From positions 1 through 63,009 of the IMG/VR virus record IMGVR_UViG_3300036774_000098: a DNA stretch of 63,009 nucleotides; one strand, written 5' to 3'. The translations under genes were made by a program, and so were the position numbers. Under the pieces are notes generated by a model. The model did no database searches. It had not been told where the DNA came from and saw only the letters and a list, made by a program, of their open reading frames with translations. Positions 4,710 to 55,635 of the stretch are shown here, piece after piece; within the stretch, counting starts at the first letter, position 1; the number at the start of each line of letters is the position of its first letter. The DNA comes from a virus (lineage: Duplodnaviria; Caudoviricetes).

Positions 4710-4758
4710 CATATAGGTTGGTTTAATGCTTGCGTCAAGGGCAAAAGTATGCTAAGGT
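4710..4758. promoter_or_regulatory. Overlapping divergent sigma70-like promoters
   Basis: Minus: TTGACG-17-TATATG. Plus: TTGCGT-17-TAAGGT. Lies between divergent operons. Confidence 0.5.
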
Positions 4759-44510: not shown

Positions 44511-44580
44511 CTTATAACAGGATACGGAACATGTGTCAATCATTAAAATGTTGACACGGTTTGGCCATCTTGATAAAGAT
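44511..44580. promoter_or_regulatory. Back-to-back divergent sigma70 promoters
   Basis: Minus: TTGACA-17-TATAAG. Plus: TTGACA at 44551 with a weaker -10. The two -35 boxes form an inverted repeat. Confidence 0.65.
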
Positions 44581-44631
44581 GTGGGGCAAATACACAACTG
44601 TGTAACTGAAATGCAACATAGGGAACACCAA

Positions 44632-45243
44632 ATGAAGAAGCTTCTCGCCCTCGCAGTTCTGGGCGCTCTGTCTACCTCTGCGGCGGCTGCTGATCTTGGC
44701 GGCTCCATGAAAGATACTTACGAATCTGCGGTGGCTCCGTGCGGCTCTAAGACCTGGACTGGCTTCACTTTGTCGGTCGGCATCCGCGCCGACATGATGG
44801 ACATCGGGCAGACGTCCATAGCCAATGGAGCCGACTTGTCTGCCAGCGTTCGCGACCTCGGCGTCGAAGGCCATCTGGCTGCAGACTACCAGTTCGCTAA
44901 CTCTCCTCTCGTACTTGGCGGATTCGGATCAATCGGCTATAATGGCGCCTCGACGGTGATCGACGAGAGCCTGGGCGTCATCGGCGGCGTGGCTATCGGA
45001 AACGTTCTGCCTTACGCATTGATCAGCGCCGAATTCATGGACACCAAGTGGTCTGATTTTGCTGGTGGAACCAGCTCGTTTGGCATCACGAGCTCTGGCT
45101 ACGGTGTCGGTGGCGGCGTCAAATTCCGCATCACCAACCATCTGGTCGCCGGTGTCGAGTACAAGCGCATCTACTGGGGCAGCGTTGAAGGCATCGACAT
45201 TAAGGAAGATCGCATCGCGGCAAGGGTTGGCTATCAGTTCTGA
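44632..45243 (+). CDS. Outer-membrane beta-barrel protein (Omp25/RopB-like)
   Basis: Signal peptide, AADLGGSMKD, TWTGF, GYG.GGGV, GVEY, C-terminal RVGYQF. Confidence 0.85.
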   Translation: MKKLLALAVLGALSTSAAAADLGGSMKDTYESAVAPCGSKTWTGFTLSVGIRADMMDIGQTSIANGADLSASVRDLGVEGHLAADYQFANSPLVLGGFGSIGYNGASTVIDESLGVIGGVAIGNVLPYALISAEFMDTKWSDFAGGTSSFGITSSGYGVGGGVKFRITNHLVAGVEYKRIYWGSVEGIDIKEDRIAARVGYQF

Positions 45244-45312: not shown

Positions 45313-45330
45313 ATGCCACAAGGAGAAGAC

Positions 45331-45993
45331 ATGTTCGTCTGGGACAGACACACCGTTCAGATCGCCGTCGTGCTGGCTAAGGCCGGCTACTCCTCTCAAG
45401 AGACGGCGACCATCCTCGGGATCAGCCGGAGCGCCGTGCTCGGGCGCTCGAACAGGAAGCGGGAGTTCCAGTTCAAGACGCCGTGCCGCGGCGTGCAGCT
45501 CGCCGAGGAAGCCAGGGCCATTCGACTTGAGGCCGCCAGGGAGCTGATCAAGGACGTCATCCCACCTGCCGAGCCCCACCAGCCTATCGAGTTCGTCTCG
45601 AAGAAGACCAGGGAGCGCATCGCCGCCTTCAAGGCCAGGAAGAATCCGAAGGTCATTATCCGCCGTGATCCGCTGACCGAAAAGCCTCTCACCGAGGAGG
45701 AGAAGCGGCTCCTCTTCACTGTCGAAGGAGGGAACCCAAACTCCGTCAAGTTCCTTGACCTGAAGGAAAAGCATTGCAGATGGATCGTGTCGGAGGTAGA
45801 CGGCATCGACACAGTTTTCTGTGGGAACAAGCACATAGAGGGATCACAATATTGCGAGCACCATCGGGTAAGAAGCATAAGACAGCACCAGCCAAAGCGC
45901 CTCAACTACAAAAAGGTCCTGCTGCTGGATCAAAATATCGTGCACGTGGCTCCTACGATGGAGAAGAATACTTCAGCTCTCAAAAAGAGCTGA
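45331..45993 (+). CDS. gcrA: GcrA-like cell-cycle regulator
   Basis: W.....L...GYS....A..LGISRSAVLG...R; LDL....CRW....FCG.....YC..H. Confidence 0.85.
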   Translation: MFVWDRHTVQIAVVLAKAGYSSQETATILGISRSAVLGRSNRKREFQFKTPCRGVQLAEEARAIRLEAARELIKDVIPPAEPHQPIEFVSKKTRERIAAFKARKNPKVIIRRDPLTEKPLTEEEKRLLFTVEGGNPNSVKFLDLKEKHCRWIVSEVDGIDTVFCGNKHIEGSQYCEHHRVRSIRQHQPKRLNYKKVLLLDQNIVHVAPTMEKNTSALKKS

Positions 45994-46247
45994 AGCGTTT
46001 CAAGCAGCTCCAGCTCCTGGAGAAGCTAGGCGAGATCAAGGACCTCAAGCGGCAGGTCCGGCACAAGCTGGTGGTCAACGGAGTCCTGATCGCCACCTAC
46101 GTCTCTGACGCCGAGTATGTCGAGGTCGCCACCGGCCGGAAGATCGTCGAGGACACTAAGTCCCCAATGACAAAAAAGCTGGCGCCATACAGGATGAAGC
46201 GCCAGCTCATGCTTGCCTTGTTCGGAATCAAGATCCTGGAGACTTAG
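45852..46247 (+). CDS. DUF1064-family nuclease-like protein
   Basis: SKY.A, F.S.KE..R, L.RQV, Y..D..Y, VEDTK, Y.MK; probable TTG start with GAGGG RBS. Confidence 0.75.
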   Translation: MRAPSGKKHKTAPAKAPQLQKGPAAGSKYRARGSYDGEEYFSSQKELKRFKQLQLLEKLGEIKDLKRQVRHKLVVNGVLIATYVSDAEYVEVATGRKIVEDTKSPMTKKLAPYRMKRQLMLALFGIKILET

Positions 46248-46339
46248 TCCTGGACACCGTCGTCGTTCGGATCGGTCGGGACGTGGATCTCTCCAGGGTC
46301 TCGCCGCTCCGGTTCGTCAGGCTGATCGTCATCGCACAT
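46244..46339 (-). CDS. 31-aa acidic micro-protein
   Basis: MCDDDQPDEPERRDPGEIHVPTDPNDDGVQD; TGATG coupling, GGAG RBS. Confidence 0.6.
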   Translation of the reverse strand: MCDDDQPDEPERRDPGEIHVPTDPNDDGVQD

Positions 46340-46461
46340 CAGATGACGTCTCCCTGCTCTCCAGGCTGGTCCCAGGGGTCTCCCGCTGGCTCCTGCGGCT
46401 GGCCCGTGGTATCGATCGGGCCGTCGTCCACTTCCGTGGGCATCTCGTCAGGTCCACACAT
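46339..46461 (-). CDS. 40-aa acidic micro-protein
   Basis: MCGPDEMPTEVDDGPIDTTGQPQEPAGDPWDQPGEQGDVI; TGATG coupling, GAGGAG RBS. Confidence 0.6.
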   Translation of the reverse strand: MCGPDEMPTEVDDGPIDTTGQPQEPAGDPWDQPGEQGDVI

Positions 46462-46595
46462 CACTTCGTCTCCTCGTTGTGGTCCTCGCAGGGGCAGGGC
46501 TCGTAACCAGACCCGACTTCAGGATCAGGCTCATAGACGCCGGTCCCTTCACATGTCGGGCACACCGGCTCTTCAGTCGGGGTTCCGTCACTCAT
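46461..46595 (-). CDS. 44-aa acidic Cys-containing micro-protein
   Basis: MSDGTPTEEPVCPTCEGTGVYEPDPEVGSGYEPCPCEDHNEETK; CxxCxGxG motif. Confidence 0.6.
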   Translation of the reverse strand: MSDGTPTEEPVCPTCEGTGVYEPDPEVGSGYEPCPCEDHNEETK

Positions 46596-46749
46596 GGGTC
46601 ACGTGTCCTTCCGGCGTCACCGGCACATGCACGTTCGGCTGAGGGCCTGGGCCGTACTCGATGGGGATGATCCCGGTGGAGTCAGGAGCCGTCTCGGCGC
46701 GCTCTGAGAGCTCCCGGTACTCTTCCTGCATCTGTTCATTGTCACTCAT
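46588..46749 (-). CDS. 53-aa acidic micro-protein
   Basis: MSDNEQMQEEYRELSERAETAPDSTGIIPIEYGPGPQPNVHVPVTPEGHVTHE; AAGGAGG RBS. Confidence 0.65.
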   Translation of the reverse strand: MSDNEQMQEEYRELSERAETAPDSTGIIPIEYGPGPQPNVHVPVTPEGHVTHE

Positions 46750-46761
46750 ATTCGTCCTCCT

Positions 46762-47559
46762 TCAGACGTCCACATCAACCTTCAGGATGAAGGCTGAAGC
46801 TCCTCGGCCCTTCTTCAAGGGTCCGATCTCCGAGAGGCATACGCCGTCCTTGTACAGGGCGGCTCCTCCCACATTCTCCTCGACGCGGTAGCCGACCGTC
46901 TGCATGCCGACGGAGCCGACGCATGCGAAGTAGCAACCCATCTCCTTCGACCGTAGCTTGGCGTGGTTGAATATCCACTTATGCCCGTCGACGGTCTTCT
47001 CGTTTCCCTCGAACGTGCACATCGAAGGCATGAACACAAGCTCCACGCCGTCGGCCTTCAGCTCCTTGAACTCCTCCGCCTTGGCCGTGTCATGGCAGAT
47101 CGCGATGGCGCAGGTGACGCCCATGAACTTGAAGACGTCGAGCTTCTCTCCAGGCTTGAGATACCAGCCCATCCGATCCGTCTCCTCGTCGGTGAGCGAC
47201 ATCTTGTCCTGGACCGCTAGGACGCCGTCCTCGTCGATGAAGTGCGCCCGGTTGACGTAGCCGTCTTTCGTCAGCACCGGCCAGCTCCCTGGCAGGATCG
47301 CTATCTCGTAGCGCCTGACGAGCCCACAGACCTTCTCGGCAAAGTTCATCTCTTTGATCTCATGGGCCATCCAGCCGATCTCATCGGTCGGCTTCAGATC
47401 GTTAGGAGCGTAGTCGAGCACCTGCATGGCCCAGTACTCTGGCAGCACCAGGACGCTACAGTCCCGACTGTCGAAGGCGAGCCGTTCCAGCCGGGCAAGA
47501 AGTCCGGCGCAGTTCGTTATGGGTTTTCCCATATTCGCCGCAGCAAGTGCTATTCTCAT
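46762..47559 (-). CDS. Nitrilase / carbon-nitrogen hydrolase family protein
   Basis: VLVLPEYW (Glu), N.A, QDK (Lys), IAICHD (Cys), FMPS. Confidence 0.85.
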   Translation of the reverse strand: MRIALAAANMGKPITNCAGLLARLERLAFDSRDCSVLVLPEYWAMQVLDYAPNDLKPTDEIGWMAHEIKEMNFAEKVCGLVRRYEIAILPGSWPVLTKDGYVNRAHFIDEDGVLAVQDKMSLTDEETDRMGWYLKPGEKLDVFKFMGVTCAIAICHDTAKAEEFKELKADGVELVFMPSMCTFEGNEKTVDGHKWIFNHAKLRSKEMGCYFACVGSVGMQTVGYRVEENVGGAALYKDGVCLSEIGPLKKGRGASAFILKVDVDV

Positions 47560-47732
47560 TGTTCCTTGTCTTTCATTTTCAGAATGAAGTCTTCAGGAGG
47601 AACGCGCACTATGTTGAATTTACCCATCGCAGCATCCACAGTTATGACCTGAACAGTCATCCCATATATCAGCAGGTCCTCGATCATCTTGGCCTTTGGG
47701 TATATCAGGTCCCCTTCGTCTTCCTCCTCCAT
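47556..47732 (-). CDS. 58-aa hypothetical protein
   Basis: MEEEDEGDLIYPK...; TGATG-coupled to the ligase and ATGA-coupled to the nitrilase. Confidence 0.55.
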   Translation of the reverse strand: MEEEDEGDLIYPKAKMIEDLLIYGMTVQVITVDAAMGKFNIVRVPPEDFILKMKDKEQ

Positions 47733-48784
47733 CAGTCTTTCTCCTTCAACAGGTGCTGGTTGTTCAAAGCCTTGAACGAGTGCAGCAGGCCGTCAATGTC
47801 GTAGTGACGCCAGACGCAGCCCTCGGCGTCGACGTTGTGGTTGAGAAGCGACTTCCGCTCGGACATCAGCAGAATGTCGCTGGTGGACGACGGGAACTCA
47901 TCGACGATCGCATAGAGCGGAGCGATGCACAGGCCGAAGTCCGAAGTGATCAGTTGTAACGAAGCTTCGGACACGTAATGCTGCTGCTCGATGTCCCATA
48001 TCCCGAACACGTAGAACTGAGGGGCGATCAGCTTGTAGGGGTTACCCTGGATGCCCGGCCCTACCAGCTCACCCTGGACGGCGATCCCACGCGTCGGGCT
48101 GATCTCGCGGAGTTTGGCTTCCAGGTCGAGCTGACGCGCCATCTTCCAGAACGCGTTGTCCTCGGTCTCCTTCAGGTCGAGGTTGCGCGAGCAGACGCCG
48201 AACTCTCCCTCCTGGAGGTATGCCGTCATCGAGCTGCCGTCCAGCTTCTCGCGGACGAACCACTGCCGAGCCGCCCTGAACTTGTCCCAGCTCCGTGACA
48301 GGTTCTGGATGCGAGGCTCATCCGTCTTCGGGATGAAGGTCGGGAAATTCCCCCGGGCGACACCGGCCAACTGCGGGCTGATCGGCTTCTCCCACTTGGT
48401 GACGCCGAGAAGCTCAGTAAGATCGTTTCGTGACGCCGATGAGAACACCCCTAGAGGGACGATATAAATCGGCAGAAGCAGGCCCTGGCTGAGCTGACCG
48501 CGCAGCTTGATGGTCTTCAGGCGGAAGCCTTCCGTCCCGTCCCAGTTCTTCCTGAACGAACTCTTGCGAAGGAACTCGTACTCGGGGGCCACTGGCAAGA
48601 AGCTGTCCACCTCGAAGTACACGGCGAGGTCTTTTTCTTTGAACTCACCTTTCTTTACCACAACTTGCCAGCCATCTACCATGGCCAGCTCGATCTGGTC
48701 TGCTCCCTCTATCGGCTTGATCTCCGCGATCTCGCGGATCGTCACGAGCTCACGCTCGCTCTTGTGTTCCTGTGCTTCTGTCAT
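47732..48784 (-). CDS. RNA ligase, DRB0094 (Rnl5) family
   Basis: I.PIEGAD.IE.A.VDGW.VVVKKG N-domain, KLRGQLSQG, FP.FIPKTDE.RIQN, motif I EKLDGSS, CSRN, QGEL.G, EG.V, SFK. Confidence 0.92.
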   Translation of the reverse strand: MTEAQEHKSERELVTIREIAEIKPIEGADQIELAMVDGWQVVVKKGEFKEKDLAVYFEVDSFLPVAPEYEFLRKSSFRKNWDGTEGFRLKTIKLRGQLSQGLLLPIYIVPLGVFSSASRNDLTELLGVTKWEKPISPQLAGVARGNFPTFIPKTDEPRIQNLSRSWDKFRAARQWFVREKLDGSSMTAYLQEGEFGVCSRNLDLKETEDNAFWKMARQLDLEAKLREISPTRGIAVQGELVGPGIQGNPYKLIAPQFYVFGIWDIEQQHYVSEASLQLITSDFGLCIAPLYAIVDEFPSSTSDILLMSERKSLLNHNVDAEGCVWRHYDIDGLLHSFKALNNQHLLKEKD

Positions 48785-48809
48785 ATTCCCTCCTTATGTG
48801 TAGACCTAC

Positions 48810-48838
48810 AGTATACACGTTATCACCTATCCCGTCAA
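48810..48838 (-). promoter_or_regulatory. Strong sigma70 promoter for the RNA ligase operon
   Basis: TTGACG-17-TATACT. Confidence 0.75.
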
Positions 48839-48842
48839 CCCC

Positions 48843-50003
48843 CTAACTTCTGGGCATCAGATAGTGCTCCACGAATATGTCGCCCGGCTCCTTCCAGATG
48901 TTGGACAGGCTCATGGGCTTTTGGTCGTGGGCCGGGATGAACATGCTCACCTCGTCCCCCTTGATGTTGCTCAGCGCCTGCTGGAACAGGTCGCCGCCGA
49001 CGCGCCGGCTGAACATGCCCTCGCCACAGCGGTGTCCTGTCTGTCCCTCGATCATGTCCTCGGCGTCCTTGCCGCTGGCCCTGGCCATGAGCCAGACCTT
49101 GCCGTCGGCGCGCGCCTCGATGTCGAGGGCTATGGCGCCCTTCAGCTTGGCCCCGATGGCGCAGACCCGCTTGGCCGACTTGGCCAGCGTCTTCCGGTCC
49201 AGCCGGATGATTCGCACGTCGTCTCCCGCCCTCGGGAACAGGGGCGTGTTCCTGAAGTCCGGGAACCTCTGGTCAGGCAGGAGACCGGCGATCATGGCGT
49301 CTTTCCCGACCATGAACCCCCAGCCATCCTGGAAGCCAAAACTGACCGAATTATCGATAGGCCGTAGATCGGCCAGGGAAGCCCACTGACGGGCCAAACG
49401 CTGGCCCGCTGTACCCGTAGCACCCACCATGGCTTCGGCCGTCAGCGATGGCACGGTGAGCTTAGAAATGGCTACTCTGTGGCCGTCCAACCCTACCACC
49501 TGGAGATCACCCTCGTGGGAGGAGAAATGCACCCCGTTCAGGTATGGCCGGTCGATCCTGGTGTCGGCGCTGTCGATGGTGGCCCTGATCATCTCGATCA
49601 GCTTGTTGGCTTTGACGCTGACGAGCTGGCAGTCGTTCATGAGCCTGGGCATGGCCGGGAACTCCATGGCGTTGGCCGCGCCGAACTTCGCCGAGTACCG
49701 GCCGCTGGTGAGCGTCGCCTGAGATCGATCGAACTTGATCTCCAGTTCGCCGTCGTCCAGGCCGGTGACGATGTCCGTCAGCTGGGCGGACTTGATCATG
49801 ACCGGATCCCAGCCCTTGACCGTGGCCCCGACCAGGACGCGGCTCCAGATCGTGCCGTCGGTGGCGTTCACCCAGACGCCGTCCTGGCAAGCCTCGAACA
49901 TTACCGACTCGTACATCACGTTCGTCGGGTTGTCGGTGGCGGTCGCCCCGCGCGTCAGCGTCAGGGCCTCCTGCAAGTCCGCCTTATCGATTCTGAGCTG
50001 CAT
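48843..50003 (-). CDS. dnaN: Divergent DNA polymerase III beta-clamp homologue
   Basis: ATDG, EFP, RPYLNGV, DGHR, FPDF, C-terminal YLMP; about 386 aa. Confidence 0.8.
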   Translation of the reverse strand: MQLRIDKADLQEALTLTRGATATDNPTNVMYESVMFEACQDGVWVNATDGTIWSRVLVGATVKGWDPVMIKSAQLTDIVTGLDDGELEIKFDRSQATLTSGRYSAKFGAANAMEFPAMPRLMNDCQLVSVKANKLIEMIRATIDSADTRIDRPYLNGVHFSSHEGDLQVVGLDGHRVAISKLTVPSLTAEAMVGATGTAGQRLARQWASLADLRPIDNSVSFGFQDGWGFMVGKDAMIAGLLPDQRFPDFRNTPLFPRAGDDVRIIRLDRKTLAKSAKRVCAIGAKLKGAIALDIEARADGKVWLMARASGKDAEDMIEGQTGHRCGEGMFSRRVGGDLFQQALSNIKGDEVSMFIPAHDQKPMSLSNIWKEPGDIFVEHYLMPRS

Positions 50004-50583
50004 GTCTGTCCTCCTCTGCGGCCACAGCCACCATCTTTGACAAGGCTTCCTTGCGGTCCAGCATCGCTTTCCGCATCGGTCCCCAATTGCCAATGCCATT
50101 CTCCTCGAACCAGCGCTCGCGGTTCCGGTGTTTGCGTCTGATCTCGTCGGCTTCCCGGTCGTTGGGGAGCCGCTCTTTCTCGCGGACGAAATCCCAGAGG
50201 GCTACGATCCAGCCGTCCCGCGCCGCCGAGATCGAATACCTACGACCCTGCCCGCCACAGAGCACCTGCGCCGCCCAGGTTTGCCGTTCCTTCGTCCACT
50301 CGGGGTAGGGCTCTTTCGGAGGGGCATTGGCGATGGTCTTGCCGTAGAGCTCGTCACGAGCGGCTTTGCAGTAGCCCATGCACTCGGCTATCGAAGGGAA
50401 GGTATGGTATTCGCGGCCAGCACGAAGGTTCTTCGATGCCAATTCTAAGACGGTATCAGAAAAGATGCTGAGATCTTCGATAAGTCCAGCGTAAAACGCC
50501 TCAACCGGAGTACCAGCAGGCATCTTCGGGTCAGCAAAGAATGGCCTCATCGGAGTTATGAACTTATCAAGTACGTTTCCCAT
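49984..50583 (-). CDS. Hypothetical protein (possible helicase loader, by position)
   Basis: FPSIAE motif; directly after the initiator. Confidence 0.5.
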   Translation of the reverse strand: MGNVLDKFITPMRPFFADPKMPAGTPVEAFYAGLIEDLSIFSDTVLELASKNLRAGREYHTFPSIAECMGYCKAARDELYGKTIANAPPKEPYPEWTKERQTWAAQVLCGGQGRRYSISAARDGWIVALWDFVREKERLPNDREADEIRRKHRNRERWFEENGIGNWGPMRKAMLDRKEALSKMVAVAAEEDRHAAQNR

Positions 50584-51694
50584 TTTGGATATCCTCCTGT
50601 ATTTTCGCTAGCTTGGCATAGAGGTCCTCGCCGTTGCTAGCCTGGGTTGGTGTATATGCTTTTAGCGTCCCCCTGTCAACTATGGGAGCCGTCCTCCTAC
50701 GCATGGCTTCCATCACACGGCCCTCGAAGAACCTCCAGCCCCTGATCGATCCCGGTCCCATGCGCTCCTCGGCCTGCTTGGACGCCACCTGCAGGACCGG
50801 CAGGATGTCCTGGTAGAGGTCGCACCCGGCGTCGATCCACTTCTTGGGTTCGGTCACCAGCTCCAGGGCCATGTTGCCTCGGGCCAGCGCGCCGTTGCAG
50901 GCGGAGGTCAGTTTGTCGTGCAGCTCGTGCACGGTCAGCTTGTTCGCGTCTGCGCCAATAAATTCGCGCGCGTTAATATCAAGAGATGATTTATCCGGAT
51001 AGGGGCTCTCCAGGGGTGTGGTTGGGGCCAGCTCCCTGCCACCACCATTACCCTCATTGGGTGTAGCGTCTTCCCCAAAAACAACAACACCCCCCTCTGA
51101 ATTTAGCTGAATATCCCCCCGATCCTTAAGGGATGTGGCCCGCTGGGCAGGCCGCTTTTGGGGCAACTGGCCTGTGGGGCAGGCCACCTCGTTTCCAGAA
51201 AAGTGGCCACTAGAACAGGCCACTTTTTTCAAACTGGCCTGTGGGGCAGGCCGCTTTTTTTCATGGGAATCGAGGACATTTTGCAGAATGCTATAGCGAC
51301 TTTTTTTTCCTCGCCCTTCTCTCTCAACCTTTGCGTGCTCCCATTCTCCGAACTTTTCGGCAGCGCTGGCGAAGCCGTCCTTGGACTTGCTGAGCAGCAC
51401 CCGCGCCTCACTGCGAGGCATGGAGATAGGGTCGCCATCGACCCCGCCGAGCTCGATCACGGCCACGGCGAACAGCTTCGCGTCGGCCGGCATATCGCTG
51501 GTCAGCACTTGAATTCTGGCGATGTCTCGGGGAGTAGGATTTGGGTTGGCTTTGAGAAGGCGGGAACGGGCGCTCTCTCTCTTGGTCTCGATGTAGGCCA
51601 GCTCCATTCCGCTGAGGTCCAGTGGCGTCTGCTGGCGGCCGTTGAATGGGGTATTGACGCGCGGTTGCGCATGCTCTATGGTTTTATCCACCAT
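50567..51694 (-). CDS. Putative replication initiator
   Basis: N-terminal wHTH-like region, internal iterons, C-terminal W..AGCD...DILP...W.FF; GAGGA RBS. Confidence 0.6.
   Translation of the reverse strand: MVDKTIEHAQPRVNTPFNGRQQTPLDLSGMELAYIETKRESARSRLLKANPNPTPRDIARIQVLTSDMPADAKLFAVAVIELGGVDGDPISMPRSEARVLLSKSKDGFASAAEKFGEWEHAKVEREGRGKKSRYSILQNVLDSHEKKRPAPQASLKKVACSSGHFSGNEVACPTGQLPQKRPAQRATSLKDRGDIQLNSEGGVVVFGEDATPNEGNGGGRELAPTTPLESPYPDKSSLDINAREFIGADANKLTVHELHDKLTSACNGALARGNMALELVTEPKKWIDAGCDLYQDILPVLQVASKQAEERMGPGSIRGWRFFEGRVMEAMRRRTAPIVDRGTLKAYTPTQASNGEDLYAKLAKIQEDIQNGKRT
51136..51253. repeat. Four 19-bp iteron-like quasi-palindromes (candidate origin)
   Basis: TGGCC-N7-CAGGCC(A/G) at 51136, 51168, 51204 and 51235, mostly followed by T-tracts. 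Confidence 0.75.
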
Positions 51695-51817
51695 GAGGCT
51701 TTCCTCGATTAGCTTTGAGACGCATACCCAATGCGCCATGGTCGTGCCGCTGGGCTTTGACGAGTCGCAGCAGGCCTCCGCAGGATACGGAGCCAAAGCA
51801 ACTTTGGCAACCTCTTA

Positions 51818-52683: not shown

Positions 52684-52760
52684 TGCGGAGTGGAGCAGTA
52701 GTCAGCTCGCCAGCCTCATAAGCTGGAGGTCGGTGGTGCAAATCCACCCTCTCGCAACCA
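52684..52760 (+). tRNA. tRNA with CAT anticodon (Met-like, fMet-type body)
   Basis: CCAGC-CTCATAA-GCTGG; T arm GGTGG-TGCAAAT-CCACC; ACCA end; bulged acceptor stem; lacks the three G-C anticodon-stem pairs. Confidence 0.75.
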
Positions 52761-53974: not shown

Positions 53975-54050
53975 GCTAGTCGTAGCTCAGTTGGTAGAGC
54001 GGGGGACAAATAATCTCTAGCGCGCTGGTTCGAGTCCAGCCGACATGGCA
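53975..54050 (+). tRNA. Degenerate tRNA or tRNA-like RNA (nominal anticodon AAT)
   Basis: Canonical TAGCTCAGTTGGTAGAGC D arm and GCTGG-TTCGAGT-CCAGC; loop CAAATAA lacks U33; bulged acceptor; no CCA. Confidence 0.55.
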
Positions 54051-54583: not shown

Positions 54584-54657
54584 CGGGATGGGGCCAAATG
54601 CGAAATGGCAACGGGTCGCGCCCGTCGTTGCAGGTTCGAATCCTGCCATCCCGGCCA
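54584..54657 (+). ncRNA. tRNA-like RNA with 5-nt anticodon loop
   Basis: CGGGATG/CATCCCG-GCCA; GCCA/TGGC D stem; ACGGG-TCGCG-CCCGT; GCAGG-TTCGAAT-CCTGC. Confidence 0.7.
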
Positions 54658-55435: not shown

Positions 55436-55587
55436 GTTGCCCCGTCTGCGGCCAAGACAGCTGCTCATGCCAAGCAGATCTCTTCGACGCATTTATTGGC
55501 GGTGGACCGGCTGACGTCCCCCCGGAGCACCAGCCCCACCACATACCCCCTGCCGAGCCCGATCCTGATAACGACAACGACCCTTGA
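55432..55587 (+). CDS. 51-aa acidic Cys-rich micro-protein
   Basis: MSCPVCGQDSCSCQADLFDAFIGGG...DPDNDNDP; ATGA coupling to tad2. Confidence 0.6.
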   Translation: MSCPVCGQDSCSCQADLFDAFIGGGPADVPPEHQPHHIPPAEPDPDNDNDP

Positions 55588-55635
55588 CAGGAGTCAGCAT
55601 CTATACTATATCCCTCTCTGCATGATTAGTTCTAC

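Follow-up and report, generated by a model that had tools for sequence, protein, structure and literature searches.

Behind the sliding-clamp gene of an uncultivated tailed phage of the Caudoviricetes, the IMG/VR virus record IMGVR_UViG_3300036774_000098, we found on the minus strand a cassette in which an RNA ligase, a small protein X, a carbon-nitrogen (CN) hydrolase and four acidic micro-ORFs (very short open reading frames, ORFs), A to D, follow one another. The record is linear, 63,009 bp long, with a CheckV completeness of 89%, and is referred to as the window, meaning the whole stretch of DNA that was analysed. The reading that we favour, and to which we give about an even chance, is that of a mosaic accessory cassette, anchored on the amidase that the hydrolase gene would encode, whose genes are expressed together but act separately. 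The ligase is of an already known kind and the amidase represents a phage-only clade that is new within a known superfamily; the combination of ligase, amidase and micro-proteins is not a conserved system, and the genes that accompany the amidase vary among its relatives.

The seven genes that an earlier note on this DNA had described (a ligase, an ORF of 58 amino acids (aa), a nitrilase and ORFs of 53, 44, 40 and 31 aa) are all present. Starting from the clamp gene, whose stop lies at 48843, the order on the minus strand is promoter, ligase, X, CN hydrolase, A, B, C and D:

48838-48810, minus strand: sigma-70-type promoter TTGACG-17-TATACT, between the clamp stop and the ligase start, matching 10 of 12 consensus positions
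47732-48784, minus strand: RNA ligase, 350 aa, with AGGAGG upstream
47556-47732, minus strand: X, 58 aa, acidic; joined to the ligase by a stop/start overlap (TGATG) and to the hydrolase by another (ATGA)
46762-47559, minus strand: CN hydrolase, 265 aa, beginning at the ATGA junction with the X stop
46588-46749, minus strand: micro-protein A, 53 aa, with AGGAGG 6 nucleotides (nt) upstream
46461-46595, minus strand: micro-protein B, 44 aa, its start overlapping the end of A by 8 nt
46339-46464, minus strand: micro-ORF C, 41 aa (from GTG at 46464) or 40 aa (from ATG at 46461), TGATG with the B stop, GAGGAG upstream
46244-46339, minus strand: micro-ORF D, 31 aa, TGATG with the C stop

Three loci could be read at the DNA level, namely the window and the two loci, L003 and L004, that the one scan of metagenomes recovered. 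Scans of viral contigs with the hydrolase, the hydrolase alignment, the clamp, the A alignment and the B alignment found no DNA of relatives, and a scan of genome contigs with the hydrolase alignment gave no match. The three gene orders, with P for the promoter, are as follows:

Window: clamp-P-ligase-X-hydrolase-A-B-C-D
L003: clamp-P-hydrolase-B-C-like-MSD ORF, without ligase and without X; hydrolase 59% and clamp 46% identical to those of the window
L004 (contig of 3.8 kb): ligase-X (175 aa)-hydrolase-two repeats of CRISPR type (short palindromic repeats, clustered and regularly interspaced)-A-one acidic ORF-DUF1064-GcrA; hydrolase 60% and ligase 61% identical to those of the window

The earlier expectation that ligase and nitrilase occur together elsewhere was borne out only narrowly, since L004 has the series ligase-X-hydrolase, but L003 has no ligase, and the CN hydrolase domain PF00795 was found in none of the four other phage records that bear an Rnl5-type ligase (phiM12, 201phi2-1, BcepSauron and the L002 contig). 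The micro-genes are also unevenly distributed. Among the 22 relatives of the hydrolase, four are accompanied by A, seven by B and 11 by neither, a class that is soft because divergent or uncalled micro-genes may escape a word-indexed protein search. Seen from the micro-genes, the relatives of A are paired with a hydrolase in 4/4 cases and those of B in 7/14; beyond the three loci, this pairing was deduced from a fetched locus or from the equal size of the longest contigs, and not from DNA reading. A and B occur together in no case other than the window, where B shares 80% identity with its counterpart in a clade whose hydrolase shares just 58%. Furthermore, in P0056, a metagenomic protein of 98 aa, the core of X is fused in frame to B, whose MSD start is kept, with no hydrolase between them.

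We read the locus as a mosaic because L003 lacks ligase and X, X and B are fused in P0056, half of the hydrolases have neither A nor B, half of the B relatives have no matching hydrolase contig, the identities of B and hydrolase are discordant, and the four Rnl5-bearing phages have no PF00795. According to this proposal, the cassette would be transcribed from a promoter of host type that lies right behind the sliding-clamp gene, with its genes translationally coupled. The amidase would be the permanent occupant of a slot of variable content next to the clamp gene, and around it the ligase with X, A-type or B-type micro-genes and further acidic micro-ORFs would be added or swapped. The products would not make up one obligate multi-subunit system and would have separate host-directed functions: the ligase would seal RNA nicks with 3'-OH and 5'-PO4 ends, the amidase would hydrolyse some amide, and the small acidic or zinc-binding proteins would bind host or phage partners. 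The genes and their families, the conserved state of A, B and X and the varying gene content of the relatives are shown; the timing of expression, the substrates and the partners are inferred.

Three observations weigh against this proposal, in that they would suit a functional unit just as well. The ligase/X junction (TGATG) and the X/hydrolase junction (ATGA) are identical in the window and in L004. A was seen only together with the hydrolase, in its four relatives as well as in the window. Finally, the type of micro-gene follows the hydrolase tree, where the labels need a minimum of 3 changes compared with a mean of 6.2 when shuffled (0/200 shuffles were as low; 11 rows carried no label); therefore, the micro-gene type is inherited with the hydrolase within subclades and differs between them.

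Regarding transcription, the earlier note had claimed one strong promoter for the cassette. The promoter stands, but it may not be the only source of transcripts: no terminator-like site was found in the scan between the clamp gene and the cassette promoter, and therefore read-through from the clamp side is possible. A promoter scan over 8 kb gave 4 sites, compared with 2.7 +/- 1.5 in shuffled sequences. The wider motif TTGAC-N18-TATAC, with at most one mismatch, occurs five times in the window, at 4711-4738(-), 44512-44539(-), 48811-48838(-), 50652-50679(-) and 55584-55611(+), against 0.73 expected, and 0/100 shuffles reached five; this family probably comprises the promoters that the phage offers to the host polymerase. 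In addition, L003 has a similar promoter, TTGACA-17-TATACA, at 756-784, in the equivalent place directly after its clamp gene. A search for sequencing runs of the cassette listed none. At the other end of the cassette, the stop codons of D and of the converging DUF1064-like gene overlap (46244-46247). The same overlapping tail-to-tail stops (CTAAG) between the last micro-ORF and the DUF1064-like gene are seen in L004 (L004:2731-2734), and therefore there is no room for a terminator between both transcription units.

The hydrolase had been proposed as a nitrilase-family enzyme with an E-K-C triad, and this assignment holds. It matches PF00795 with 51.7 bits (1e-13; gathering cut-off 23.2), and in an alignment of 23 sequences K119, E125, E126 and C155 are invariant, while E41 is at least 90% conserved. 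C155 aligns with the cysteine replaced by serine in the MtCPA C158S entry, a proven catalytic cysteine. The AlphaFold2 (AF2) model (predicted local distance difference test, pLDDT, 89.7; predicted template modelling score, pTM, 0.91) has the alpha-beta-beta-alpha sandwich fold. With this model, Foldseek gave 213 PDB matches at E<=0.001, and all among the matches listed are members of the superfamily; the top ones are mouse Nit2, an archaeal nitrilase/amidase, yeast Nit2, the Nesterenkonia amidase and N-carbamoylputrescine amidase, with template modelling (TM) scores of 0.69-0.78 at 13-21% identity for the top solved structures, Nit2 and the archaeal enzyme lying at 0.73-0.78. The protein is apparently an active thiol amidase of the nitrilase superfamily.

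The closest relatives of this hydrolase are 22 metagenomic proteins with 55-69% identity, followed by a gap down to cellular CN hydrolases with at most 31%. No close homologue was present in 50,697 phage records, in which tblastn gave a single match, of 25%, in a Listeria phage. When the NCBIfam models of the nitrilase branches were compared (NAD+ synthase glutaminase, AguB, deaminated-glutathione amidase, Lnt and nitrilases), the six best scores were 16.6-39.9 bits against cut-offs of 249-500, the top one being 39.9 against 479; for the cellular CN hydrolases of about 30% identity, no branch assignment was obtained. As judged from these comparisons, the family is a tight phage-only clade outside every characterised nitrilase branch.

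Three possible roles for the amidase or its partners were considered and dropped. A partnership with an NAD+ synthetase would call for the NAD synthase domain PF02540, action on the nitrile preQ0 of the 7-deazaguanine pathway for TGT and QueC, and an RNA-repair pair for an end-healing kinase (AAA_33); none of these was found in the window, which is about 89% complete, so that their absence is not a proof.

The ligase had been called a DRB0094-type enzyme, and it does score 193.5 bits with TIGR02306 (RNA_lig_DRB0094), above the equivalog cut-off of 151.15. Its domains are PF21189 (N-terminal OB, residues 13-106, 5.1e-39) followed by PF09414 (nucleotidyltransferase, residues 174-338, 9.8e-24). 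It also matches phrog_968 (8.2e-86) and the Naegleria RNA ligase 5cot (E 1e-74), with which the block KLDGSSMT is identical; we take the motif I lysine (KxDG) in this block to be the adenylylated one. A DNA scan of viral contigs with the ligase found one distant locus, L002, with unrelated neighbours. By its domains and scores, the protein is an ordinary ATP-dependent RNA ligase of the Rnl5/DRB0094 type. The Rnl5 family joins 3'-OH/5'-PO4 nicks provided that the strand with the 3'-OH end is RNA, and its physiological role is described as uncharted (PMC5397189).

As regards the micro-ORFs, the earlier observations on their signals and composition were confirmed. Each one has a ribosome-binding site or a stop/start overlap (AGGAGG for A, the 8-nt overlap for B, TGATG for C and for D). 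All of them are rich in D, E, P and G (fraction 0.42-0.61; isoelectric point 4.05-4.40) and nearly free of lysine (0, 1, 0 and 0 residues in A, B, C and D), and they start with MSD (A and B) or MC (C and D). The claim that gene calling had overlooked them was correct for B and C, which are absent from the public gene calls for the contig, but not for A and D, which are present there together with X; D sits in a cluster of 1 in the public annotation.

To evaluate their coding character we used a codon log-odds score trained on 18 long genes, with ligase and hydrolase left out. The scores were 0.293 for X, 0.273 for A, 0.216 for C, 0.114 for D and 0.027 for B. Among the controls, 130 wrong-frame ORFs had a mean of -0.38 and a 95th percentile of 0.108, and in-frame chunks of 40 codons a mean of 0.375, whereas the eight rival ORFs of the cassette region scored from -0.11 to -0.45. 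The score of C is reached by 3% of the wrong-frame ORFs and that of D by 5%, which is modest support for these two. The claimed frames of the micro-ORFs have a gene-like GC content at the three codon positions (A 0.69/0.43/0.74, B 0.62/0.53/0.67, C 0.76/0.48/0.74, D 0.81/0.34/0.69), and no rival frame does. In the window, 11 ORFs of 28-79 aa have a score above 0.1 without overlapping a larger likely gene, X, A, C and D being among them; with 4/11 of the gene-like small ORFs of 63 kb, the cassette is unusual within its own genome.

The four micro-ORFs differ in their conservation, which the earlier note had taken up for the set as a whole: A and B are conserved as proteins, but C and D have no significant relative. 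L003 and L004 carry ORFs that resemble C and D in place, size and composition, although none of the BLASTP comparisons with these counterparts was significant (E 0.57, 46, 0.67 and 0.062, the last being the best for D, with the last micro-ORF of L004). It is possible, though we lean against it, that C and/or D are untranslated and that the last 220 nt are a 3' untranslated tail of the operon facing the converging gene. This lack of similarity between ORFs in the same place speaks for such a tail; moreover, the stop of D is forced by that of the converging gene, its codon score lies just at the 95th percentile of wrong-frame ORFs, and C is missing from the public calls. Nevertheless, both ORFs combine the TGATG coupling with purine-rich sites upstream, their codon-position GC is gene-like while that of rival frames is not, the rival frames all score negatively, and acidic, proline-rich ORFs of 44-45 aa are kept at this position in the relatives. 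We therefore regard C and D as probable, though unproven, genes.

A, B and X are a different matter, and because they are conserved at the protein level we regard them as real, conserved small proteins. None of the three matched Pfam, NCBIfam or PADLOC, nor any PHROG family beyond a weak match of B to phrog_6060 (E 0.0054), and they are new small families. The A family has four relatives of 54-57 aa with 55-79% identity, in which APDS.G and PQPN..VPVT are invariant (5/13 candidates passed, the window protein included). Between A and its copy in L004, 13 of the 28 conserved residues use different synonymous codons, and the first, second and third codon positions differ at 18/15/32 sites; the hydrolase has a like distribution (78/57/151). 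Synonymous changes are thus predominant in A, as expected of a coding sequence.

B, the best conserved of the micro-proteins, has 14 relatives of two length types, 44-45 and 60-64 aa, but no match in cultured phages. Its motif is CxxCxGxG ... CxC, and C12, C15, C34 and C36, as well as TGVY, are invariant in 14-15 sequences. This pattern suggests a putative zinc knuckle with one possible metal site; searches against zinc-finger families gave nothing beyond the weak PHROG match mentioned above. The element CxxCxGxG is the motif of DnaJ-type zinc fingers. A complex prediction of hydrolase, X, B and Zn, with B as partner, scored 0.00 in two runs without controls, and counts neither for nor against binding.

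For X, six proteins matched at E<=1e-3 among 1.84 billion representatives, including the window protein itself, that of L004, and a weak, repetitive protein of 657 aa that was discounted. The true relatives (L004:981-1508, P0069, P0070 and P0072) have 143-175 aa and consist of an N-terminus rich in Ser, Cys and Asp, a conserved core and a C-terminal hydrophobic helix, for which they look tail-anchored in a membrane. The window X corresponds to the core only and, by this comparison, is a form that has lost both ends of the longer family form. Its AF2 model is a helix-hairpin-helix (pLDDT 71.5) with 0 matches in BFVD at E<=0.001. As a lead only, the look-alikes of X in the ESM Atlas include portal-protein fragments at 0.90-0.93. 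The fusion in P0056, of the Rosetta-stone kind, hints that X and B may act together.

Another aspect to mention is a small repeat element of L004. L004:2304-2392, between the hydrolase stop and the A start, holds a pair of 28-nt direct repeats set 61 nt apart: a perfect stem-loop in the style of type I-E, followed by a degenerate copy with 75% identity. The repeat pattern matches genuine arrays of 61-nt period in at least 120 loci of bacterial genomes, many of them from Alphaproteobacteria, although the exact loop of the L004 repeat occurs in none of these. Comparison of L004 with the Rfam CRISPR families gave 0 matches at E<=1; the spacer had no match in the window (with up to 3 mismatches) or in the viral contigs (exact), and the repeats are absent from the window. 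The contig, of 3.8 kb, has no room for cas genes. We classify the element as a putative phage mini-CRISPR array or repeat decoy.

The earlier note had proposed host takeover or anti-defence, with the peptides as nucleic-acid mimics or amidase substrates and the amidase possibly acting on acylated tRNA; the analysis gave evidence neither for nor against these ideas, apart from one circumstantial point, the mini-array of L004. The cassette might, alternatively, be an anti-defence island, in which the ligase reseals RNA cut by host nucleases, the amidase destroys or alters a host amide, and the micro-proteins block defence proteins. It is known that T4 RNA ligase 1, which belongs to another ligase family, counters an anticodon nuclease. 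In favour of such a role, the variable gene content lies under its own promoter at a fixed place, and the mini-array stands inside the same cassette in L004, which is circumstantial. There is also a published precedent in repeat mimics, carried by phages, that suppress CRISPR-Cas (PMC10651486; bioRxiv 10.1101/2024.10.29.618823). On the other hand, no protein matches a known defence or counter-defence family, the eight proteins compared had 0 matches in PADLOC (a library of defence, not anti-defence, proteins), and the end-healing kinase is missing from the window, as is the mini-array, for which Rfam offered no CRISPR match in L004 either. We consider this role tentative and on the improbable side; it is compatible both with a mosaic of separate genes and with a module built on the amidase.

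Such a module would be formed by the amidase and the micro-proteins together, with A and/or B as substrate, inhibitor, chaperone or specificity factor and X as a further partner. The idea stays alive because of the conserved coupling, the strict association of A with the hydrolase and the fusion of X to B. The direct succession of hydrolase and B in L003, with a shared contig deduced in seven further cases, also speaks for it, as do the micro-gene type that tracks the hydrolase clade and the Gln and Asn within the invariant PQPN..VPVT block of A. However, A takes the place of B in some clades and B that of A in others, half of the relatives of B come without a matching hydrolase contig, P0056 joins X and B with no hydrolase between, and co-occurrence within one phage lineage may be mere shared descent. 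For these reasons we judge a single module unlikely.

Quite improbable, and the most speculative of our proposals, is that the phage-only amidase with A, B and X is a counter-defence module. The amidase would then hydrolyse an amide-bearing immune signal of the host or modify a peptide; its substrates, inhibitors or targeting subunits would be the micro-proteins, and the slot would be a hotspot for swapping tools, hence the CRISPR-repeat decoy of L004. Lastly, that A to D are pieces of one larger gene split by frameshifts or sequencing errors is hardly credible: their adjacency on one strand, their similar composition and their spread over three frames would suit it, but the relatives of A (54-57 aa) and of B (44-45 or 60-64 aa) terminate at stops of their own with constant lengths in many independent contigs, which excluded a single frameshifted gene spanning A-D.

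The window has a G+C content of about 59%, and its large structural genes and terminase form a long plus-strand block. No close cultured relative of the window was found, the top terminase match being 46% identical, and blastn of 46000-50200 against the same 50,697 phage records gave short ligase fragments only. The neighbouring and other features are:

44533-45243, plus strand: outer-membrane beta-barrel gene beside the GcrA-like gene (PF13505 1.6e-8, also Opacity family)
45313-45993: GcrA-like gene (PF07750 match), adjoining the cassette
ending at 46247: DUF1064/resolvase-like gene converging on the cassette (phrog_190 at 2.3e-13)
52684-52760, plus strand: tRNA gene Met-CAT
53976-54049, plus strand: tRNA gene Ile-AAT
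54584-54657, plus strand: tRNA gene Ala-CGC

The outer-membrane beta-barrel gene looks like a moron. Because this gene and the GcrA-like gene adjoin the cassette, the neighbourhood points to a Gram-negative host, which would probably be alphaproteobacterial; GcrA is typical of Alphaproteobacteria. On the clamp side, the start of the clamp ORF is probably 50003, where the Pfam match begins, rather than 50099. The 409-aa ORF at 50567-51796(-) has a codon score of 0.10 and neither a Pfam nor a PHROG match; inside it, some 70 nt upstream of the next gene, which starts at 50583, lies the promoter-like site 50652-50679. The call of this ORF as a gene, or its start, may be wrong.

As to what these findings mean, in the literature searched, at the level of titles and the starts of abstracts, no paper was found that describes the combination of ligase, CN hydrolase and micro-proteins, nor one on a phage nitrilase-family amidase. 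Some defence reverse transcriptases are known to contain nitrilase domains. The clade has no characterised member, and the substrate of the amidase, if found, would add thiol amidase chemistry to the acts of phages on their hosts. The small ORFs illustrate that conservation can be demonstrated for phage genes of 44-53 aa that gene callers miss or ignore, B being an example. In this phage group, the promoter next to the clamp gene flags a variable slot that can be mined for accessory or counter-defence genes. Taken as a whole, the cassette is well-documented phage dark matter and not a new system.

Several parts of the cassette, and the L004 element, can be set beside known systems. The ligase shares its OB and nucleotidyltransferase domains with the Rnl5 ligases of Deinococcus (DraRnl/DRB0094) and Naegleria (NgrRnl), and phage members of this family were already catalogued (phrog_968) and are annotated in phiM12, 201phi2-1 and BcepSauron; compared with them, the window enzyme itself is not different, and only its gene neighbours differ. 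B resembles the zinc finger of DnaJ in its CxxCxGxG, after which comes a CxC, and in its four invariant Cys, with the difference that B, just 44 aa long and with one possible metal site, has no J domain and no Pfam match. The L004 element shares with RNA anti-CRISPRs and viral CRISPR RNA-like RNAs the I-E-like repeats, the 61-nt period and the location in a phage accessory region, but it departs from phage repeat mimics in its degenerate second repeat (75%), in the lack of a spacer target and of an Rfam match in our searches, and in being confined to L004 and not shared by the window.

The amidase, for its part, has the fold and the Glu-Lys-Cys set of the nitrilase-superfamily amidases, namely Nit2/omega-amidase, the archaeal and Nesterenkonia amidases, N-carbamoylputrescine amidase and the NAD+ synthetase glutaminase domain, although it is only 13-21% identical to those of solved structure and reaches no branch cut-off. 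As leads only, a 63-member viral cluster of CN hydrolases in the ESM Atlas resembles it by its features, and the predicted structure there of phage fusions between a GNAT acetyltransferase and a CN hydrolase (phrog_11841) has a TM score of 0.88 to it. The hydrolase also matches the CN-hydrolase part of these fusions with E 6.4e-8; unlike them, it is a stand-alone protein without an acetyltransferase domain.

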